Source: Microcystis aeruginosa NIES-2549 (GTDB lineage: Bacteria; Cyanobacteriota; Cyanobacteriia; Cyanobacteriales; Microcystaceae). Taken from it: a DNA stretch of 32,000 nucleotides. The notes under the pieces are model-generated. The model ran no database searches, was not told the origin of the DNA, and saw only the letters and a program-made list of their open reading frames with translations. The stretch is taken from contig NZ_CP011304.1 of assembly GCF_000981785.2 (NCBI RefSeq), forward strand, positions 600,001-632,000, in the 5' to 3' direction. This document shows, piece by piece, positions 7,358 through 22,383 of the stretch. A program made the position numbers and the translations under genes. Numbering within the stretch: position 1 is the first letter of the stretch; each line of letters opens with the position of its first letter.

Positions 7358-9910
7358 ATGTCTCATCTCACCATCGACACGGAAAATAATCAGCGTCAAC
7401 CCTTTGAATTACCGGGGGCTAAACCCCATTATAACCCCGATCGACCCGGACAAGTTAATCATATTTTTCTCGATTTAATTATTGATATTCCCCAACAAAG
7501 TTTTCAGGGCAGCTGTCAGATTACCCTCACTCCCATTCGTCAGGGAATTAGCAGTTTAACTCTGGATGCGGTGGATCTAAATATTAATTCTGTGTTTATT
7601 GAAGGTATCAGTCAACCCTTTGACTATGATCGTTCTCTCCTGACCATTCATCTGTTACAACCCACCACCGATAAACCGATTATCCTGACGATTAACTATC
7701 AGGTTAAGCAACCACAACGGGGATTATATTTTATCGGACCTGATGAATATTATCCCGATAAACCGATTCAAGTTTGGACCCAGGGAGAAGATGAAGATTC
7801 TCGCTTTTGGTTTCCCTGTTTTGATTACCCCGGCCAATTAGCCACCTCCGAAATTCGGGTTAAAATTCCCCAACCCTATATCGCTATTTCTAACGGAGAA
7901 TTAATCTCGGTGGCAACCGTTGGTGAAGACAGAATTTATCACTGGTCACAAAAGCAAATTCATCCTACCTATTTAATGACTCTTGCGGTGGGAGATTTTG
8001 CCGAATTATGCGACTCATGGAATGGTGTTCCCGTTACTTATTATGTGGAAAAAGGACGGGAAGAAGAGGGACAAAGAAGTATGGGTAAAACTCCCCGCAT
8101 GATCGAGTTTTTTAGCCAAAAGTTTGGTTATCCCTATCCCTATCCTAAATACGCGCAAGTTTGTGTAGATGATTTTATCTTTGGTGGGATGGAAAATACT
8201 TCCACCACAATTTTAACCGATCGCTGTTTAATTGATCAAAGAGCCAGCATCGATCATACTTGGACAGAAAGCTTAGTTGCCCATGAATTAGCTCATCAAT
8301 GGTTCGGTGATTTAGTGGTGATTAAACACTGGTCTCACGCTTGGATTAAAGAGGGAATGGCTTCCTATTCTGAGGTTTTATGGACAGAATCGGAATACGG
8401 AAAAGCAGCTGCTAGTTATTATTTATTAGGGGAAGCAAGAAGTTATTTAGAAGAAGATACTTCCCGCTATCGTCGTCCGATTGTTACTCATGTTTATCGA
8501 GAAGCTATCGAACTTTATGATCGTCATCTCTACGAAAAAGGTGCTTGTGTTTATCACATGATCCGCTCTATTTTAGGGGAAGATTTATTCGCAAAAGCGA
8601 TTCATACTTTTGTGCGGGATAATGCCCATAAAACCGTGGAAACTGTGGACTTATTACGGGCGATCGAAAAAGCGACCGGCTACAATTTATTATTCCTCTT
8701 TGATCAGTACGTTTATCGCGGTGGTCATCCCGATTATAAGGTCGCTTACAGTTGGGACAATGAGAATAATTTAGCCCAATTAACTGTCACCCAAACTCAG
8801 GATGAAAAGGAACTATTCGACTTGAAAATTCCCGTCGCTTTTGCCTATCTCAACTCTGAAGACCTTACCTACAATCTGCGGATTCACCAAAAAGAACAAA
8901 CTTTCTATTTTCCCCTAGCACAAAAGCCCGATTTTGTCAAGTTCGATCGGGGTAATAATTTCCTCAAAACCGTCACTCTTGAGTATCCCATCGGCGAATT
9001 AAAAGCGCAATTACAACAGGATCCCGATCCGATTTCCCGTATCTATGCAGCGACGGCCATTGCTAAAAAAGGCGGTTTAGAAGCGATCGAAGCTTTAGGG
9101 AGAGCCCTAGAAAATGAGCCTTTTTGGGGGGTGCGTGTGGAGGTGGCCAAACAGTTAGCAACTCTTCGGTTAGATCAGGCGGTTACTGCTTTAATTAAAG
9201 GTTTAAACGATGAAAAAGCACAAGTCCGTCGGGCAATTGTCGAGGGATTAAGTGAAATTAAAACCTTAGATAGTTATAATGCGCTTAAATCCCTATTAGA
9301 AACTGGAGATGCTAGTTATTATGTGGAAGCGGCCACGGCGCGAGGATTAGGCTCCATGGCCGTGGGACAATTGCAAAATAAAGAAGGGGAAATTATTGAC
9401 CTGCTCAATCATATTTTACAGTCAAGAAAGGGGTGGAATGAGGTAGTAAGAGCGGGCGCAATTGGCGGTTTAAGCCAGTTAAAAACCTCGCCGGCGGCTT
9501 TGGAGTCAATTTTGACCTACACGGCTTTAGGCACGCCTCAACCCCTGAGATTAGCCGCTATCCGCGCCCTGGGAGCGATTTCTTCGGGACAAACCACCGA
9601 CAAATTAACCGTAATTTTGGAACGTTTAGAAACTATTGCCAAGGAAACTTTTTTCTTGACGCAGGTGGCAGTGTGTAACGCTTTAGGACAGATAGAAAAT
9701 GCCAAAGCTATCGCTATTTTACAAGCTTTGAGCGATCGAACTCCCGATGGTCGCGTGCGTCGTGTAGCGGAGGAAGCAGTACAAAAAGTCCAGAAAAAAT
9801 TAGGTTCCGACAAAGCAATTCAGGAAATTCGCGAGGAATTAGAAAAAATGAAACAGGAAAATCAGGAACTTAAAAGTCGTTTGACCAAATTAGAGGCGAA
9901 AAATAGTTAG
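7358..9910 (+). CDS. M1-family zinc aminopeptidase (aminopeptidase N-like) fused to C-terminal HEAT-like repeats and a coiled-coil tail
   Basis: GGMENT exopeptidase motif and the HELAHQWFGD...W(X)KEG zinc site. The C-terminal about 300 aa has repeated (A/V)R..A...LG HEAT/PBS-lyase-like units, and the protein ends in a KQENQELKSRLTKLEAK coiled coil. Start set at MSHLTID (ATG 7358). Confidence 0.88.
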   Translation: MSHLTIDTENNQRQPFELPGAKPHYNPDRPGQVNHIFLDLIIDIPQQSFQGSCQITLTPIRQGISSLTLDAVDLNINSVFIEGISQPFDYDRSLLTIHLLQPTTDKPIILTINYQVKQPQRGLYFIGPDEYYPDKPIQVWTQGEDEDSRFWFPCFDYPGQLATSEIRVKIPQPYIAISNGELISVATVGEDRIYHWSQKQIHPTYLMTLAVGDFAELCDSWNGVPVTYYVEKGREEEGQRSMGKTPRMIEFFSQKFGYPYPYPKYAQVCVDDFIFGGMENTSTTILTDRCLIDQRASIDHTWTESLVAHELAHQWFGDLVVIKHWSHAWIKEGMASYSEVLWTESEYGKAAASYYLLGEARSYLEEDTSRYRRPIVTHVYREAIELYDRHLYEKGACVYHMIRSILGEDLFAKAIHTFVRDNAHKTVETVDLLRAIEKATGYNLLFLFDQYVYRGGHPDYKVAYSWDNENNLAQLTVTQTQDEKELFDLKIPVAFAYLNSEDLTYNLRIHQKEQTFYFPLAQKPDFVKFDRGNNFLKTVTLEYPIGELKAQLQQDPDPISRIYAATAIAKKGGLEAIEALGRALENEPFWGVRVEVAKQLATLRLDQAVTALIKGLNDEKAQVRRAIVEGLSEIKTLDSYNALKSLLETGDASYYVEAATARGLGSMAVGQLQNKEGEIIDLLNHILQSRKGWNEVVRAGAIGGLSQLKTSPAALESILTYTALGTPQPLRLAAIRALGAISSGQTTDKLTVILERLETIAKETFFLTQVAVCNALGQIENAKAIAILQALSDRTPDGRVRRVAEEAVQKVQKKLGSDKAIQEIREELEKMKQENQELKSRLTKLEAKNS

Positions 9911-10280: not shown

Positions 10281-10395
10281 TAGTTATAGTCATTTCAGAT
10301 AAGTCTGATACACTCTAGACCGACAAAACCCTTATGAACTCTGGGATTAATATTCTCAATTTTAATTGAAATGGCTATACCTTACTGACCGCCTT

Positions 10396-10761
10396 CTATT
10401 CTAGATAATCCCCTAAAAAGACGAGTTTATTCTTGATATCTTCGGCAGAGCGGGTAGCGATTAAATTAGCAATAGCTTTTACCTGTTCTCCCACGGAATA
10501 TCTTTGTTTCGCGGCCACAATAATTCCCGTATGGCTGATCGAGCGCGTCATATAGGATTTATGCAATCGACAAAAATCGCCTACATTAAAAGTATAAATT
10601 ACCCGACCTTGCTGGGTTGCCCAAACCAGTTGATCGGGATCGGGTAGCTGAATGTTTTTCGCTTCCCAAGTGGTAATTACATCAATCTTCAGATTCCGCA
10701 AAGCTTCCACGACCGAGCGTTGACCCGCATCTTCATCAAGGTAGAGACGGATTTGACTCAT
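10396..10761 (-). CDS. PIN-like (DUF5615 / COG4634, Mut7-C-type) putative toxin of a type II TA pair
   Basis: 121 aa starting MSQIRLYLDEDAG, typical of the DUF5615 family. Its start shares 1 nt with the stop of the upstream DUF433 gene (TAATG). Confidence 0.75.
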   Translation of the reverse strand: MSQIRLYLDEDAGQRSVVEALRNLKIDVITTWEAKNIQLPDPDQLVWATQQGRVIYTFNVGDFCRLHKSYMTRSISHTGIIVAAKQRYSVGEQVKAIANLIATRSAEDIKNKLVFLGDYLE

Positions 10762-11051
10762 TAAAATTCACCGGCTCGATATCGTGATTCCCAGTCTTCA
10801 CAATCGGCTCGGTAAGCATCGATATCGGCCTCTATCTGTTCTTTATTCGCGTGATAATACGCTAGAGCGCTATAAATTTGAGCCAGACTTAACTGAGGAT
10901 ACTCCTTAGCGATCGCTTCGGCACTCATTCCCGTTTTATGATCCATGACTAAACTTTGAATCGTGATTCTAGTTCCCGCGATCCGGGGACGAGCATTACA
11001 AATATCCGGACTAGCCACAATAAATTCGCTAATATCGATGCCTGTAGCCAT
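10761..11051 (-). CDS. DUF433 (COG2442) putative antitoxin
   Basis: SPDICNARPRIAGTRITIQSLV... is the DUF433 signature. The start was trimmed to MATGIDISEF, because the longer ORF runs into the repeat at 11080. Confidence 0.75.
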   Translation of the reverse strand: MATGIDISEFIVASPDICNARPRIAGTRITIQSLVMDHKTGMSAEAIAKEYPQLSLAQIYSALAYYHANKEQIEADIDAYRADCEDWESRYRAGEF

Positions 11052-11079
11052 ATTTTCGCCTAAAGAAGTCCCTTTTATT

Positions 11080-11309
11080 GTAGCTCGATCGATACATCCG
11101 AACAACCAAAAAGCACTCCCTAAAATTAGAGAATGCCCTTTTCTTTAATGATTTAGACCCTAACTGATTGAATTGACAAAAATAGGGAATTTATAGCCTC
11201 TGCGGAGTAGAATTCTCATCAAAGTCAGGTTATATTATGACCGTTTCTTCCTCAAAAAACCCACCAGAGAAAACAGCCCTAACCCTAAAATAGCGCTAGG
11301 CTCCGGTAC
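11080..11309. repeat. Copy 2 of the roughly 215-230 bp repeat (3' end and terminator region of the intact PEP-CTERM gene)
   Basis: See copy 1 at 10055..10268. Confidence 0.85.
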
Positions 11310-13308: not shown

Positions 13309-13488
13309 GTAACAGGTGACAGTCGGAAACAAATCAGGAGGTTTAAATGTCAGAAATAAAATAATTTGGCAAATATTTATAAAAAAACGAGAAAAATAAA
13401 ATCTGTTCCCTTATCCCAAATAGCAATACAAACGTTCTATTACTTACTTATATGGATATTCAAACCCTTTTAGAATGGACAGATAAAC

Positions 13489-14763
13489 CTGACAGGGGGA
13501 CAAGCAAGCTGAAAAGCTTATGTAGCATAAAATACAGACACAGACTCCAAAAAAAGATAAGTCATATTTACCATATATGACCTAAATAACGAAAATGATA
13601 AGTGAACTATACCAGAAAGTGTTAGAAAATGAACTGGGACGAGCCAGATATCTACTGTTGTTAATGATAGTTGGAACCTTGCAAATACTAAAGCAAGCTA
13701 AGTTAGAGATATTAGCTGAAGCCTTACCAATACCAATCCTGTTTGAGAGTCGGAGAAAAAAACTAAAAAGATTTTTAAAGCTGGAAATTCTGAATATTGA
13801 AAAAATCTGGTTTCTCTGCCTAAAAGAGATGTTAAAACAGCAGCAGAGATTCACAACAAAAGGATTAGCGTATATTGCCATAGACCGGACAAGTTGGGGA
13901 GCAATAAATATCTTGATGGTGAGTCTAATTTATGACAAGAGAGCCATCCCAATCTATTGGGAGATATTAGATAAAAAAGGAAGTAGTAATCTCGAAGAAC
14001 AGCAGCGAGTATTAGAAAAAACATTGACCGTGCTATCAGGTCATAAAATAGTGGTGTTAGGAGATAGAGAATTTTGCTCGGTCAGTCTTGGAAAGTGGCT
14101 TCAGAAGCAGAGTTTATACTTTTGCTTAAGACAAAAAAAAAGTACAAATGTCAAGACAAAAGAAGGAATTTATCAAGAAATGAGAGAGTTAGGTTTAAGT
14201 CCAGGAACTCAACTATTTTTGAATGATGTCAATATTACAAAAGAGCAGGGATTTGGACAGTTTAACTTAGCTGGTAAGTGGAAAAAAACCTATGGGGGTT
14301 TTCAAACAAAAGAACCTTGGTATATTCTGACAAATTTTGTGGATTTAGAGACGGCAATAATTGCCTATCAAAAAAGATTTGATATTGAGGAGATGTTCCG
14401 AGATTTTAAGTCGGGAGGCTATAGCTTAGAAGGTTCTCAATTAGCACCCCAATACTTATCAAAGCTGATAATTGTTATAGCTATCGCCTATACAAGTGCC
14501 ACACTACAAGGTAAAAAAATTAAGGATATGGGAATCCAAAAATATGTCACAAGACCTGAAAAAAGATATAAAGGTCAACGCAGACACAGCAGTTTTTATG
14601 TGGGTCAACATCTCTATCATTGGCTCCAGCTACATCAAATGTTCCAAAAAAATATAGAAGAGCTAATGCAAATTAGCCGCTATCGGTTGAAGGATTACAT
14701 CAAGGGACAAAGAGCTATATCGCTTGCTCTATCTACCTTCTAGCTGGCTTGTCCCCCTCCCAG
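13489..14763 (+). mobile_element. IS4-family insertion sequence (1275 bp) with imperfect terminal inverted repeats and a 9-bp target-site duplication
   Basis: The left end is ctgacagggggacaagcaagct and the reverse complement of the right end is ctgggagggggacaagccagct, matching at 19 of 22 positions. The direct repeat cagataaac sits at 13480..13488 and 14764..14772. Confidence 0.9.
13595..14743 (+). CDS. IS4-family DDE transposase
   Basis: DDE candidates are DRTSWG and GDREF. The motif YQKRFDIEEMFRDFK has exact Y-(2)-R-(3)-E-(6)-K spacing, which is characteristic of IS4. Confidence 0.9.
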   Translation: MISELYQKVLENELGRARYLLLLMIVGTLQILKQAKLEILAEALPIPILFESRRKKLKRFLKLEILNIEKIWFLCLKEMLKQQQRFTTKGLAYIAIDRTSWGAINILMVSLIYDKRAIPIYWEILDKKGSSNLEEQQRVLEKTLTVLSGHKIVVLGDREFCSVSLGKWLQKQSLYFCLRQKKSTNVKTKEGIYQEMRELGLSPGTQLFLNDVNITKEQGFGQFNLAGKWKKTYGGFQTKEPWYILTNFVDLETAIIAYQKRFDIEEMFRDFKSGGYSLEGSQLAPQYLSKLIIVIAIAYTSATLQGKKIKDMGIQKYVTRPEKRYKGQRRHSSFYVGQHLYHWLQLHQMFQKNIEELMQISRYRLKDYIKGQRAISLALSTF

Positions 14764-16178
14764 CAGATAAACAGGTATTAGACAAAACCGGTAAACATCT
14801 TGATTCGTTGCAAGAATCCATCTTACAGGGTATTTGGGAACATCAAGATTACGAAGAAATTGCCAAAGATAATCAGCGCAGTTATGACCATATAAAAAAA
14901 GAAGCATGGAAGTTATGGCAACTGTTATCAGATGTTTTTCAAGAAGATATAAAAAAGTCTAATGTTCGTTCTATTTTAGAAAATAAAGCTTCATCTACTA
15001 TTTATCACTTTGTTAACCATCATGGTAATAATATTAGTAATAACCATATAAACATCTGTAGAGAAAATAACCCCTATTCAGAAAAAAACTTAAAAAAGTC
15101 TTCAAATTTTCCAGATAATGATCATCTATCCCCCATAATTGACTTAACAAAAGCTCCTGAATTAAGGTGTAACTATGGACGTAAGTTAGAACTATCTACC
15201 TTAAAAGAATGGCTAGATAATAAAACTCGATTAATTACTATTTATGGGTTAACTGGAATCGGAAAAACAGCTTTAACCCTTAAATTAATTTCAGAAATTG
15301 CCCCACAATTTGATTATATTATTTATCGCAGTCTGGAAAATATTCCTCAATTAATCGCTCTCAAAGATGATCTAAAACAGTTTTTCAGCCAATCTCTATC
15401 AACCCCCTTACCTGATATAATAGATTATCTAAGCTCCTATCGTTGTTTAATTATTCTTGATGATGTGCAGAATATTTTTAAACTGGGGGAATTAGCAGGT
15501 AAATATTTAAGCGACTGTCAGGATTATCATAAATTTTTTCAGCAAATTGCTACCACATCTCATCAAAGTTGTTTGATTTTAATTAGTTGGGAACTTCCCA
15601 GAGATTTTGTTACCTTAAAATCCGATAAAATTAAAACTTTATACCTACAAGGTTTAACAACAGAATTTGAAAAAATATTCAAAGAATACGGTTTAAAAAG
15701 TGAGGAAAAATGGACGAAACTGAGGGAACTTTATCAAGGTCATCCTAACTGGTTAAATATCATCTCCTCAACCATTATTGAGCTATTTGATGGAGAAGTA
15801 TCCTTATTTTTAGAACAAATGAAAAATGAAATTTATTTAGGAGATATAGAAGACTCGATCGAATGTCATTTACAGCGTTTATCCGCAACAGAAAAAAAGG
15901 TGATGCACTGGTTAGCTAATCAAACTGAAGCGGTAGAAAAGTTTCCCAAAACTGCTAATCTTGACTTATCTACTTCTGAATTTTGGGCAACTATTCAGTC
16001 ATTAATGAGACGCTGTTTACTGGATAAATTACCATCAGAAACCTCGTCCTATTTTCCTATTAATCCTGTGTTTAAATCCTATCTTCAAAGAAATCCTAAC
16101 GATTAGAAAAAATTGATATTATTCTAAATATATGTGTACCGCAACGCAGAAACCCGCAGGATCGCTTTCCAGTCTATA

Positions 16179-20559: not shown

Positions 20560-21012
20560 TTTTTCCTCCCCATTTGATTTGTGTACTGGTTGAGCGTGCG
20601 GCCTGGGCTACATTGCCTAAAGCCACCTTAAGCATCCTGACTGTGATATGCTAGAACCTGTACTATTTCACATTTTCTTTACATTGGCTAAATAAAGCCT
20701 TGAAACTGCTTAATTACTTAGGATACATCGTAGTCTTGAGTTTAGTCAGTCGGAAAAGTCGGAACTTACAGCCAAACAATTGATCTGAAATATCGGAAAT
20801 ATCAGCTAAAATAAGTAAAAAACTTAGGTTCTTCCGAACTTACACTGTAGAAAATTCCTCAAGTTCCCTCTCTGCCCAGCAATGCTCTAAAGTTGATAAA
20901 TATCAATCTAACAAAAACTCAAAGCTTTAGTATATAAGCTTTACAAGCATGAGTTGTTGATAGTTTTACATGACAGGTTCGGTAGAGCCAAAACTTACCT
21001 AATCTATAGTCC

Positions 21013-22383
21013 ATGTTTCAAGCTAATCTATCTAATACGGTGTTAAATCTCTTAGATGAGTTGGTTTTTGCCAAAACAGATCAACATCTAGACTATCTTC
21101 AAAAAACTATCTTGCAAGGGACTTTAGAAGGTTACAAATACTCAGAAGTTGCCAAAGAATCTCATCTTAGTGAAGGTCATATTCGAGATAGTGCTTCAGA
21201 ATTATGGAAAATTTTGTCAGAAGTTTTAGGGGAAGATATTACTAAATCAAATATTAGAGCAGTTTTAAAGAAACATAGCTTTATAAATAATAATATGGGA
21301 CGAGATTTAGTCTCTTTTAATAATGTTCATATTTGTGATCATAATCCATTTTCCCTCAATAATAATAATTATCACTCTGAAATCCAGCGCGATCAACCTT
21401 ATTTAGATTTAGGTCATATTCCTGAAATAACTCAATTTTATGGAAGAATTACCGAATTAAATAACCTGCAAACTTGGATAGTTGCGGAGAAATACCGTTT
21501 GGTTACTGTGTTAGGTTTAAAAGGAATTGGTAAAACCACCCTTTCTTTGAAACTGGTTGATAAAATCAAAAATAGTTTTAATTATGTTATTCGCAGAAGT
21601 TTGTATTTTTGTCCAAAATTAGATGAACTTTTAAGTGAAATTTTACCCTCTATCAATCCTCAATTAAAGCTCTCTCAAAGTCTTGACAAGAAATTAAATT
21701 TATTCTTAGAGTTAATAAAAAGCCATCGCTGTTTGATTATTCTTGATGATTTACAAAGTCTATTTGATTCTAAAAAACTAGCAGGTAATTATCAAAAAGA
21801 GTACCAAGATTATCAACTATTGTTTAAAAGCATTGCTGAAGTCAATCATCAATGCTGTTTACTGTTGTTGAGTCAAGAAAAACCTATTGATACGACTTTT
21901 TATGGGCAGAAAAATAAATTCATTAAAACATTAATCATAGAAGGTTTAGGAGAAGATGCCATAGAAATTTTGCGCCATCATAATCTATTAAATGAAGACA
22001 GTTGGGAAGCCTTAATTAAATGTTATCAAGGTCATCCTCTTTGGTTAGAATTAGTTGCTAGTTTTATTCAAGAGACATTTTTAGGTAAGGTGGCTGACTT
22101 TTTGGAGATTAAATACCCGATTGCCGAAGAAACTTTAGAGCAGACTTTATTAAGTATTTTGCAAAGTTTAACAGAATCAGAGAAACTAATGTTAACAGAA
22201 TTAGCAAATTTTAATCAACCTATTTCTATTAAAGAAATGATCGACCAAACTTCTCTAGCTTATACAGATTCTTTGAAAGTAATTCAATCTCTAATCAGAC
22301 GAATAATAGTGGCAAAAGATGAAAACGCTCTATTATGTTTGAATCCTGTTTTTAAAGCTTATGTAATTAATCATCAAATCTAG
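21013..22383 (+). CDS. HTH-like N-terminal domain + NB-ARC/STAND P-loop NTPase + winged-helix, with no C-terminal repeat domain (456 aa)
   Basis: Walker A GLKGIGKTTL, Walker B CLIILDDLQ, LLLLSQEKP (RNBS-B position), QGHPLWLELV (GxP/GLPL-like), and LTESEKLMLTELA (winged helix). The N-terminal LQKTILQG..YSEVAK...HIRD..SELWKILSEVLGEDITKSNIR resembles the HTH module found on many cyanobacterial STAND and WD40 proteins. Confidence 0.8.
   Translation: MFQANLSNTVLNLLDELVFAKTDQHLDYLQKTILQGTLEGYKYSEVAKESHLSEGHIRDSASELWKILSEVLGEDITKSNIRAVLKKHSFINNNMGRDLVSFNNVHICDHNPFSLNNNNYHSEIQRDQPYLDLGHIPEITQFYGRITELNNLQTWIVAEKYRLVTVLGLKGIGKTTLSLKLVDKIKNSFNYVIRRSLYFCPKLDELLSEILPSINPQLKLSQSLDKKLNLFLELIKSHRCLIILDDLQSLFDSKKLAGNYQKEYQDYQLLFKSIAEVNHQCCLLLLSQEKPIDTTFYGQKNKFIKTLIIEGLGEDAIEILRHHNLLNEDSWEALIKCYQGHPLWLELVASFIQETFLGKVADFLEIKYPIAEETLEQTLLSILQSLTESEKLMLTELANFNQPISIKEMIDQTSLAYTDSLKVIQSLIRRIIVAKDENALLCLNPVFKAYVINHQI

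Follow-up and report, generated by a model that had tools for sequence, protein, structure and literature searches.

The common picture of STAND and NLR proteins is of a single chain that combines sensor, switch, and effector. In MalT, AfsR, and similar STAND regulators the output (effector) domain is a helix-turn-helix (HTH), and ATP-dependent multimerization of MalT leads to cooperative binding to arrays of short direct repeats, the MalT boxes. Here we consider a gene for a 456-amino-acid HTH plus NB-ARC protein (the target) in a 32,000-nucleotide stretch of the genome of the cyanobacterium Microcystis aeruginosa NIES-2549 (contig NZ_CP011304.1, positions 600,001 to 632,000), referred to as the window. 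The best reading of the results is that the target family consists of STAND-type transcription regulators of the MalT/AfsR kind that are sensor-less. More specifically, we put at about two in three the probability that the target is an autoregulated, sensor-less STAND (NB-ARC) transcription factor, belonging to a large cyanobacterial family, that binds phased 9- to 10-bp repeats in its own promoter.

Several described systems share parts of this design. AfsR and the large SARPs of Streptomyces (N-terminal DNA-binding domain, NB-ARC-type nucleotide oligomerization domain, and TPR) are like the target in that a DNA-binding output precedes an NB-ARC-type NTPase. In promoters without a good -35 element, the direct repeats of AfsR/SARP overlap both this element and the spacer, and the last of them is near -10 (PMC10936776). 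Direct repeats at the -35 and spacer positions, the last one close to -10, are also found in the arrays of the target family. However, the target HTH is of the tetrahelical sigma region 4/LuxR type, whereas AfsR has an OmpR-type winged helix plus BTAD. The family repeats have a period of 9 to 10 bp and 3 to 7 units, compared with 11 bp and 2 units for SARPs, and the target lacks a TPR sensor, has a cyanobacterial host, and comes from a family in which autoregulation is apparently the rule.

MalT and the LAL regulators likewise combine a STAND NTPase with a LuxR-type HTH, but their HTH is C-terminal, they have a large inducer-binding sensor, and their NTPase belongs to the MalT clade rather than to the AP-ATPase/NB-ARC clade of the target. 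The target is also only about half as large and lacks a sensor. Like the target, CED-4 of C. elegans consists of an N-terminal output domain, a nucleotide-binding domain (NBD), a helical domain, and a winged helix and lacks a C-terminal repeat sensor. It provides the precedent for a sensor-less NB-ARC protein as a regulated switch that is controlled in trans, although its output domain, a CARD, recruits a caspase instead of binding DNA, the protein is eukaryotic, and the sequence relationship extends only to the NB-ARC fold. Cyanobacterial proteins in which the HTH (PF26355) and NB-ARC are followed by WD40, pentapeptide, or DUF1822 regions, together with "SigR," have the same head and NTPase as the target and the same type of upstream arrays. 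These proteins carry a C-terminal repeat domain, the presumptive sensor, in contrast to the target and most of its close relatives. Avs and bNACHT proteins have the STAND NTPase core in common with the target but are of a different clade and have cis sensors and enzymatic effectors; the target has no significant PADLOC match and no defense-island signature. The r4_2*NB-ARC*TPR_MalT ("SigR") architecture has been catalogued in cyanobacteria but not studied (PMC11119718). Literature searches found nothing on PF26355 or VMAP-M9, no description of the HTH-NB-ARC family, and no earlier account of either the repeat arrays or helix-operator covariation.

Architecture and fold of the target protein

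The target gene and the parts of its product are as follows.

21013..22383, + strand: complete gene for the 456-amino-acid HTH plus NB-ARC protein, ATG start (open reading frame [ORF] list; 94 to 96% identical full-length Microcystis homologues)
21040..21276, + strand: N-terminal HTH, residues ~10 to 88, of the sigma-70 region 4/LuxR type (PF26355; Sigma70_r4 matches; domain model), containing the recognition helix S53 to K66, SEGHIRDSASELWK
21277..21396, + strand: disordered linker, residues 89 to 128 (predicted local distance difference test score [pLDDT] below 50 at residues 91 to 125)
21322-21336, + strand: Cys108 motif NVHIC in the linker (C108 invariant in alignment A1)
21397..21942, + strand: NBD (Pfam NB-ARC and ATPase_2 above cut-off; invariant residues)
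21514-21543, + strand: Walker A, GLKGIGKTTL, in the NBD
21730-21756, + strand: Walker B, CLIILDDLQ, in the NBD
21943..22110, + strand: helical domain, ARC1-like (model helices 313 to 364; Y338, P342, W344, and L345 invariant)
22027-22056, + strand: GxP-type motif QGHPLWLELV, in the helical domain
22111..22380, + strand: winged-helix domain, ARC2-like, with invariant N444 (model elements 373 to 454; alignment A1)
22339-22362, + strand: LNPVFKAY, closing the winged-helix domain, at what appears to be the position of the plant MHD motif

A preliminary description of the locus, made from the sequence alone, had given this ORF exactly, and the motifs that it quoted are all in place (GLKGIGKTTL at residue 168, CLIILDDLQ at 240, LLLLSQEKP at 283, QGHPLWLELV at 339, and LTESEKLMLTELA at 386). 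Its assignment of a STAND/NB-ARC fold, for which it proposed domain and structure searches as checks, agrees with both. With the Pfam gathering thresholds as cut-offs for domain calls, residues 142 to 287 matched ATPase_2 (37.3 bits; cut-off, 33.2) and NB-ARC (29.6 bits; cut-off, 23.5), and the closest PDB sequence matches were NB-ARC modules of plant coiled-coil NLRs (CNLs). An AlphaFold2 model built on 30 family sequences had a pLDDT of 83 and a predicted template modeling score of 0.70, with low confidence only in the disordered linker (residues 91 to 125). The top Foldseek matches of the model were CNL resistosomes, Apaf-1, CED-4 (2a5y and 3lqq), and the archaeal STAND protein 6mfv, with E values of 6e-12 to 1e-8. 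Orc/Cdc6, MalT (8bob; E, 1.6e-7), and the more distant Avs3 (8dgc; E, 5.6e-6) ranked behind them. An Orc/Cdc6 or replication-initiator identity was set aside because NB-ARC proteins score better in both the sequence and the structure searches.

Across the 30 family sequences of alignment A1, GLKGIGKT (residues 168 to 175) and LIILDD (241 to 246) are invariant, with G168, G173, K174, T175, D245, and D246 as invariant single residues of the Walker A and B motifs. The alignment also has an invariant QGxPLWL, the linker Cys within NVNIC, and a shared C-terminal LNPVLKxY. The model and the invariant QGxPLWL give an NBD, a helical domain with the GxP motif, and a winged helix, which is the NBD-HD1-WHD fold. 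The C terminus of the protein is the end of the winged-helix domain, with no repeat domain or extra C-terminal module. The preliminary description was thus right that a repeat sensor is missing, but the "60 amino acids after the winged helix" that it counted are the rest of the winged-helix domain. At the sensor-1 position after strand 4, as judged from the alignment, the family consensus is S-x-EKPRE and the target has EKPID, without the Arg; at the apparent MHD-type position, it has LNP with the invariant Asn444 and not a His. The invariant Cys108 (21334-21336; family motif, NVNIC) sits in an otherwise disordered and variable linker between HTH and NTPase, and possible roles for it include redox, metal binding, and a processing site.

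The HTH-like head noted earlier corresponds to PF26355, named HTH_VMAP-M9, which precomputed annotation places at residues ~10 to 88. When 18 family heads were scanned singly, 10 matched Sigma70_r4 (best E, 7e-6), 9 matched r4_2, and 4 matched GerE; a subthreshold match of the head to TIGR02937 covers profile positions 117 to 162. The structural neighbors of a separate head model (pLDDT, 89) were all LuxR/NarL/FixJ proteins or sigma region 4. A profile hidden Markov model search of the N-terminal domain against PDB sequences returned nothing significant, and a single-sequence word-index search with this domain yielded 6 short candidates only and was uninformative. By analogy with other STAND regulators, the HTH head is the output domain of the target. 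Because such regulators use an HTH as output, the earlier statement that the protein has no recognizable effector is not supported.

The target is a typical member of its family in length. Hundreds of cyanobacterial homologues have the same layout of 455 to 475 amino acids, and the best 120 homologues, from many cyanobacterial genera, have 453 to 528 amino acids and 97 to 100% coverage; Microcystis orthologues are 94 to 96% identical. A library clustered at 50% identity contained 1,667 cluster representatives at E ≤ 1e-30, and among the best 150 of those most have 430 to 500 amino acids and about twenty are longer. In the long relatives, which are 33 to 37% identical to the target over residues 10 to 454, the same head and NTPase are followed by WD40 propellers, pentapeptide repeats, or DUF1822, consistent with the earlier statement that this head occurs on large cyanobacterial WD40 proteins. 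At least 548 family copies are present in a one-genome-per-species collection, often two or three per genome. A 3' truncation was ruled out: the homologues are uniformly 455 to 475 amino acids long and end at the same LNPVLKxY motif, so the target is full length, as the preliminary description had held in calling the gene intact. These comparisons establish the fold, the architecture, and the conservation of the family. A C-terminal TPR/SUPR-type inducer sensor is not present in the target or in the best 120 homologues. Therefore, the target is a variant and not a canonical member of the MalT/AfsR/LAL-type regulators.

Repeat arrays at the family promoters

The upstream regions of 81 family genes fell into 8 blastn linkage groups, compared with 46 for downstream controls, and upstream conservation was maximal 30 to 70 nucleotides before the ATG. 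Analysis of k-mer enrichment after de-duplication failed because the upstream regions were too alike, and this failure exposed the repeats. Tandem 9- to 10-nucleotide direct repeats run into a TATAAT-like box, as in ATGTCGGAA ATGTCGGAA AGATCGGA TATAAT, and the autocorrelation of the upstream regions peaks at lags 9 and 10. Arrays precede about 87% of family genes. In 1.41 Mb scanned on both strands, class-specific patterns were found at 72 of 83 family promoters and at just 11 sites elsewhere. Counted from the first base of the -10 hexamer, the cores of the units begin at -5 (35 of 75 promoters) and at -14 to -16 (64 of 75), with further starts at -22 to -25 and -31/-32 and a distal pair near -57 and -66 to -68. 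One unit therefore occupies the -35 position. Loci have about 3 to 7 units, and the distal sites, which are 20 to 25 nucleotides of nonrepeat DNA away from the proximal array, have the same unit. Upstream arrays are also found at WD40-bearing relatives with the same HTH, and a family pseudogene keeps its array. The existence, phasing, and specificity of the arrays and their association with family genes are thus direct observations, and the HTH would be what binds them.

The promoter of the target has the following elements.

20745..20765, + strand: distal direct-repeat pair GTCAGTCGGAAAAGTCGGAAC (conserved in Microcystis L001 and Crocosphaera L002)
20782..20806, + strand: proximal array GATCTGAAATATCGGAAATATCAGC, covering the -35 and spacer positions (the corresponding arrays across the family are in phase with the -10 box)
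20807..20812, + strand: -10-like hexamer TAAAAT (consensus scan; position conserved across the family)

The distal pair is the sole zero-mismatch match of TCGGAAAWRTCGGAA in the window, and zero- or one-mismatch matches of the two-unit pattern occur there only at the distal pair and the proximal array (20745-20812). A consensus promoter scan picks CTGAAA-16-TAAAAT at 20785-20812, which is the target array site. The target promoter is nearly identical in another Microcystis genome (L001) and recognizable in Crocosphaera.

Changes in the repeat unit track changes in the recognition helix. The residue at query position 59 was found to go with the repeat core as follows.

TCGGA: Asp, 42/43
TCAGA / TCATA / TACGR: Asn, 10/13
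GTTAT: Val, 13/13
TAGGA: Tyr, 1/1

The recognition helix of the target (SEGHIRD) fits the TCGGA class. Paralogues with different unit-helix pairs can be found in a single genome (L058). Two further observations concern the specificity of the arrays. First, an additional array precedes an orthologous gene for a secreted Trypsin_2+TPR protein in three syntenic loci (L044, L060, and L067); it lies about 50 to 60 nucleotides before a TATACT box common to the three. The class of this array is that of the local regulator (GTACG/GTCAG in L044 and L067; GTCGG in L060). The protease-TPR genes lie at 5961-7603 in L044, 4816-6678 in L060, and 6515-8133 in L067, and each is separated from the regulator by two divergently transcribed genes for secreted proteins, of which one has a twin-arginine-like signal. 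Second, L044 and L038 are 90 to 100% identical in their NB-ARC parts and downstream DNA, compared with 60 to 73% in the HTH coding region and 32 to 57% in the promoter; the recombination breakpoint falls in the linker. The L038 gene is a mosaic, its 3' part being 94% identical to L044, and the array class follows the HTH and not the NTPase. L038 also has an orphan array with a TATGAT box (~9306-9340), 680 nucleotides upstream of the family gene and with no convincing ORF behind it, that could be a remnant promoter or the promoter of a small RNA.

From these observations we infer a mechanism in which the sigma region 4/LuxR-type HTH would read the 9- to 10-bp direct-repeat units. In the promoter of the family gene itself, these units extend from about -60 down to the -10 hexamer and would take the place of a canonical -35 element. 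ATP-dependent oligomerization of the NB-ARC module would gather several HTH heads and thereby permit cooperative binding to the array. The bound oligomer would set the transcription of its own gene in an autoregulatory loop, which could be of either sign. A regulon of a few other promoters with the same units may also be controlled, bound from further upstream, with the secreted trypsin-like protease-TPR gene as the candidate non-self target. A protein without a cis sensor has to be regulated in trans, and its nucleotide switch might respond to a ligand, a partner protein, or the protein's own concentration, as CED-9 controls CED-4.

A number of points weigh against this reading. The covariation is confounded by shared ancestry, since there are about six classes and each is largely one clade, and the adjacency of promoter and HTH makes the mosaic supportive and not an independent proof. 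A single non-self target was seen, and the three loci that have it are related. The -10 box was assigned by its resemblance to the consensus, and the bare 9-nucleotide-period pattern is not specific outside cyanobacteria. The Foldseek E values for the small HTH domain (0.15 to 0.9) are not significant, as expected because the fold has only 60 residues. The Arg of EKPRE after the sensor-1 strand is replaced by Ile in the Microcystis/Crocosphaera subgroup (EKPID), so ATP hydrolysis may be weak in the target copy. Furthermore, a miniature inverted-repeat transposable element (MITE) in the leader of the target gene, described below, may impair its expression.

A metagenome scan with the bare three-unit pattern returned mostly unrelated coding and satellite repeats and was uninformative for the regulon; among the matches listed, the only family promoters were those of L113 and of the pseudogene L156. 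An element of ~60 nucleotides, GAGTCGGAAATTTCGGAAAGGTCGGAG...CCTCCGACTCCGCAACCCTG, recurs in several metagenome contigs of one habitat type (L087, L090, L106, L107, L131, and L144); it resembles a dispersed repeat and seems to have no relation to the family.

A more far-reaching version of the proposal is speculative, and we consider it unlikely as a whole. The family might be a set of mutually orthogonal, self-regulating NLR-type switches in which each paralogue has its own 9-bp code, set by one or two recognition-helix residues, and in which recombination in the linker swaps promoter and HTH together as a cassette. These switches would control the secreted protease-TPR protein and other cell fate or defense effectors, and HTH-only decoys such as ORF120L of phage PaV-LD (see below) would be a countermeasure of phages. 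Sensor-less and WD40-bearing paralogues of one code could then coassemble like helper and sensor NLRs.

Alternative explanations

The preliminary description had proposed that the target is a trans-acting switch of an undescribed conflict system. In its general form, this alternative makes the family an NLR-like immune or conflict switch in which the HTH senses invader DNA or is a homotypic adaptor, the NB-ARC oligomer triggers an effector encoded elsewhere, and the promoter repeats are secondary. We regard it as improbable. The Pfam name of the head does derive from vWA-MoxR conflict systems, whose middle regions have been proposed to be invader sensors (PMC7159879). The family is multiparalogous, diversifying, and AT-rich compared with its flanks, distant members are found on 86 cyanobacterial plasmids, and the sole candidate target, trypsin-TPR, is of a domain type common among conflict effectors (PMC7159879). 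However, phased, class-matched arrays at the members' own promoters have no role in a pure sensor model, and PADLOC gave nothing significant for the target protein (the best match, PDC-S27, had an E value of 2.7e-4 and covered 60 P-loop residues only).

The neighborhoods of the family genes bear on the same question. For this analysis, 80 family loci were fetched with 10-kb flanks, ORFs were called and clustered, and neighbors were counted over 81 loci. There is no conserved neighbor family, and no ORF cluster occurs in more than 12 of the 81 loci. Among 150 immediate neighbors, a Pfam census found Uma2 17 times and every other family at most 5 times, and a PADLOC census found a few Leo-, IetA-, and TRIP13-like proteins besides PDC-S03, the PADLOC name for Uma2. 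An immune switch would be favored by the few neighbors that are DO-GTPase, Leo-like, or IetA-like and by the enrichment of Uma2 at position +1 (12 of 79 loci, compared with a background of 10 in 1,203, or about 1%). The genes for Uma2-family endonucleases (PADLOC PDC-S03) directly downstream of the family gene in L007, L012, L020, L026, L030, L036, L038, L050, L056, L077, and other loci are usually convergent. As these neighbors are convergent and of one size class, they probably represent a single syntenic lineage, and Uma2 was rejected as an operon partner. A conserved operon partner of any kind was also rejected after the ORF clustering and the two censuses. The upstream neighbor is antisense in 63 of 77 loci and the downstream neighbor in 49 of 77, and the family gene is usually monocistronic. 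Thus, the survey of homologues and neighbors that had been suggested earlier did turn up Uma2 and occasional defense-like genes, but with no conserved effector, partner, or defense-island signature, no significant PADLOC match, and a usually monocistronic gene, it speaks against the proposed conflict system.

Base composition does not single out the locus either. The GC content of the target gene is 0.301, compared with 0.405 for the window, and an earlier hand count of 17 G+C in 60 nucleotides at 21301..21360 is exact. However, gene GC is lower than flank GC in 73 of 78 loci. AT-richness and stand-alone organization are family-wide traits and not specific to the window, and AT-richness is therefore not evidence for the local accessory patch in which the gene had been placed.

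The only phage among 50,697 phage records to carry the head is Planktothrix phage PaV-LD, which encodes a 105-amino-acid stand-alone homologue of it (hhalign probability, 99.1%; E, 1.4e-18). This protein, ORF120L (NC_016564.1, 84063-84380; L081, 3971-4288), is encoded between endolysin-region genes and a Holliday junction resolvase gene. It could be a decoy, a point in favor of an immune switch, or a regulator that hijacks host arrays. However, its recognition-helix residues differ from those of the family; no host-type arrays were found in the PaV-LD genome, and an IMG/VR scan for the N-terminal domain found no relatives. A conflict role of the family is possible, perhaps via what the regulators control, but the phage, plasmid, and Pfam-name facts do not support a self-contained immune sensor. 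Two other features of PaV-LD were observed. Four GATTAGAC units with a 10-nucleotide period lie directly upstream of the integrase gene ORF018R (L205, ~10348-10392), and the DUF433/DUF5615 pair of the window (10396-11105) is also present in the phage, as ORF034R/035R according to the phage record annotation (L205, 19296-19957).

It is less probable still that the protein is a sigma-like or anti-sigma-like factor whose head, being similar to region 4, would bind the beta-flap of RNA polymerase or compete with sigma region 4. The head is similar in sequence to Sigma70_r4 and r4_2, a repeat unit sits at the -35 position, and "SigR" has been listed among cyanobacterial sigma factors, with NB-ARC and WD40 as accessory domains of sigma region 4 proteins (PMC11119718). 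However, Pfam scans of the product and of the 18 family heads found no match to sigma region 2 or region 3. Without a region 2 for -10 recognition and melting, the protein cannot be a sigma factor on its own. In addition, LuxR/NarL-type regulators score equal to sigma region 4 in the structure search, and arrays of 3 to 7 units reach well past a single -35 site.

The view that the upstream repeats are not protein-binding sites at all but slippage-prone tandem repeats (giving phase variation of promoter strength or spacing) or an inherited promoter peculiarity is very improbable. In its favor, loci differ in copy number (about 3 to 7), and similar 9-nucleotide-period satellites and coding repeats occur in unrelated organisms. 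Against it, the distal sites share the proximal unit across 20 to 25 nucleotides of nonrepeat DNA, three loci have the same unit class at another, unlinked promoter, the units keep a constant register to the -10 hexamer, and the unit changes with the recognition helix.

Mobile elements at the two window copies and significance of the family

Both family genes of the window are associated with mobile elements.

20827..20989, no strand assigned: 163-nucleotide MITE within the target's 5' leader, after the -10 box and before the ATG (direct repeat D5; imperfect terminal inverted repeats)
20819-20826 and 20990-20997: 8-bp target duplications of the MITE, AAAACTTA
13316..13365, + strand: tentative promoter of the second, disrupted copy, GTCGGAAAC ... 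ATCAGGAGG ... GTCAGAAAT (read directly from the sequence)
13357-13362, + strand: TAAAAT after GTCAGAAAT in that promoter
13452..13488, + strand: displaced first 12 codons of the second family gene, MDIQTLLEWTDK (excision of the insertion sequence [IS] in silico restores a 456-amino-acid in-frame ORF)
13489..14763, + strand: IS4-family element with 39-nucleotide terminal inverted repeats (inverted repeat I1; DDE_Tnp_1)
13595..14743, + strand: IS4-family transposase ORF, within the IS
13480-13488 and 14764-14772: perfect 9-bp target duplication of the IS, CAGATAAAC
14773..16106, + strand: rest of the IS-split second family gene, 38% identical to the target (BLASTP E, 8e-88; reconstruction)

Copies 96% identical to the MITE are found on the Microcystis plasmids NZ_CP046974.1 and NZ_CP025929.1. 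In Microcystis, about 170 nucleotides intervene before the last 22 nucleotides of the leader, and Crocosphaera has no insert. Because L001 carries a different insert of ~170 nucleotides at the same spot, the site may be an insertion hot spot.

A second, diverged paralogue had been reported about 6 kb from the target. The paralogue is present, but the ORF at 14724..16106 is not an intact 460-amino-acid gene. It belongs to a 456-amino-acid gene that starts at 13452 and is split by the IS after codon 12; the apparent TTG start at 14724 falls inside the terminal repeat of the IS. Its probable promoter can be identified only tentatively, and its array is weaker than that of the target gene. It is this disrupted copy, and not the target gene, that is surrounded by DUF29 and by the toxin-antitoxin modules and IS among which both paralogues had been placed. 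The target gene is flanked on one side by cynS and two ORFs for small membrane proteins and on the other by a solute symporter gene. The circuit proposed for the window would thus be perturbed at two places, by the MITE between the target promoter and the start codon and by the IS in the second copy. With both copies hit by mobile elements, the window illustrates how MITEs and IS elements rewire Microcystis regulatory genes.

Members of the family are currently labeled "ATPase," "NB-ARC domain-containing protein," or "AAA family ATPase." "Putative STAND-type transcription regulators" would be a better label. The family retains only the switch and the DNA-binding output, with its presumptive operators beside the gene. 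Thus, it offers a tractable opportunity to evaluate how a bare NB-ARC module switches on without a cis sensor, how oligomer geometry reads phased direct repeats, and how a recognition helix and its operator coevolve into orthogonal pairs, which could serve as parts for cyanobacterial synthetic biology. The family is abundant in cyanobacteria, uncharacterized, and directly testable.

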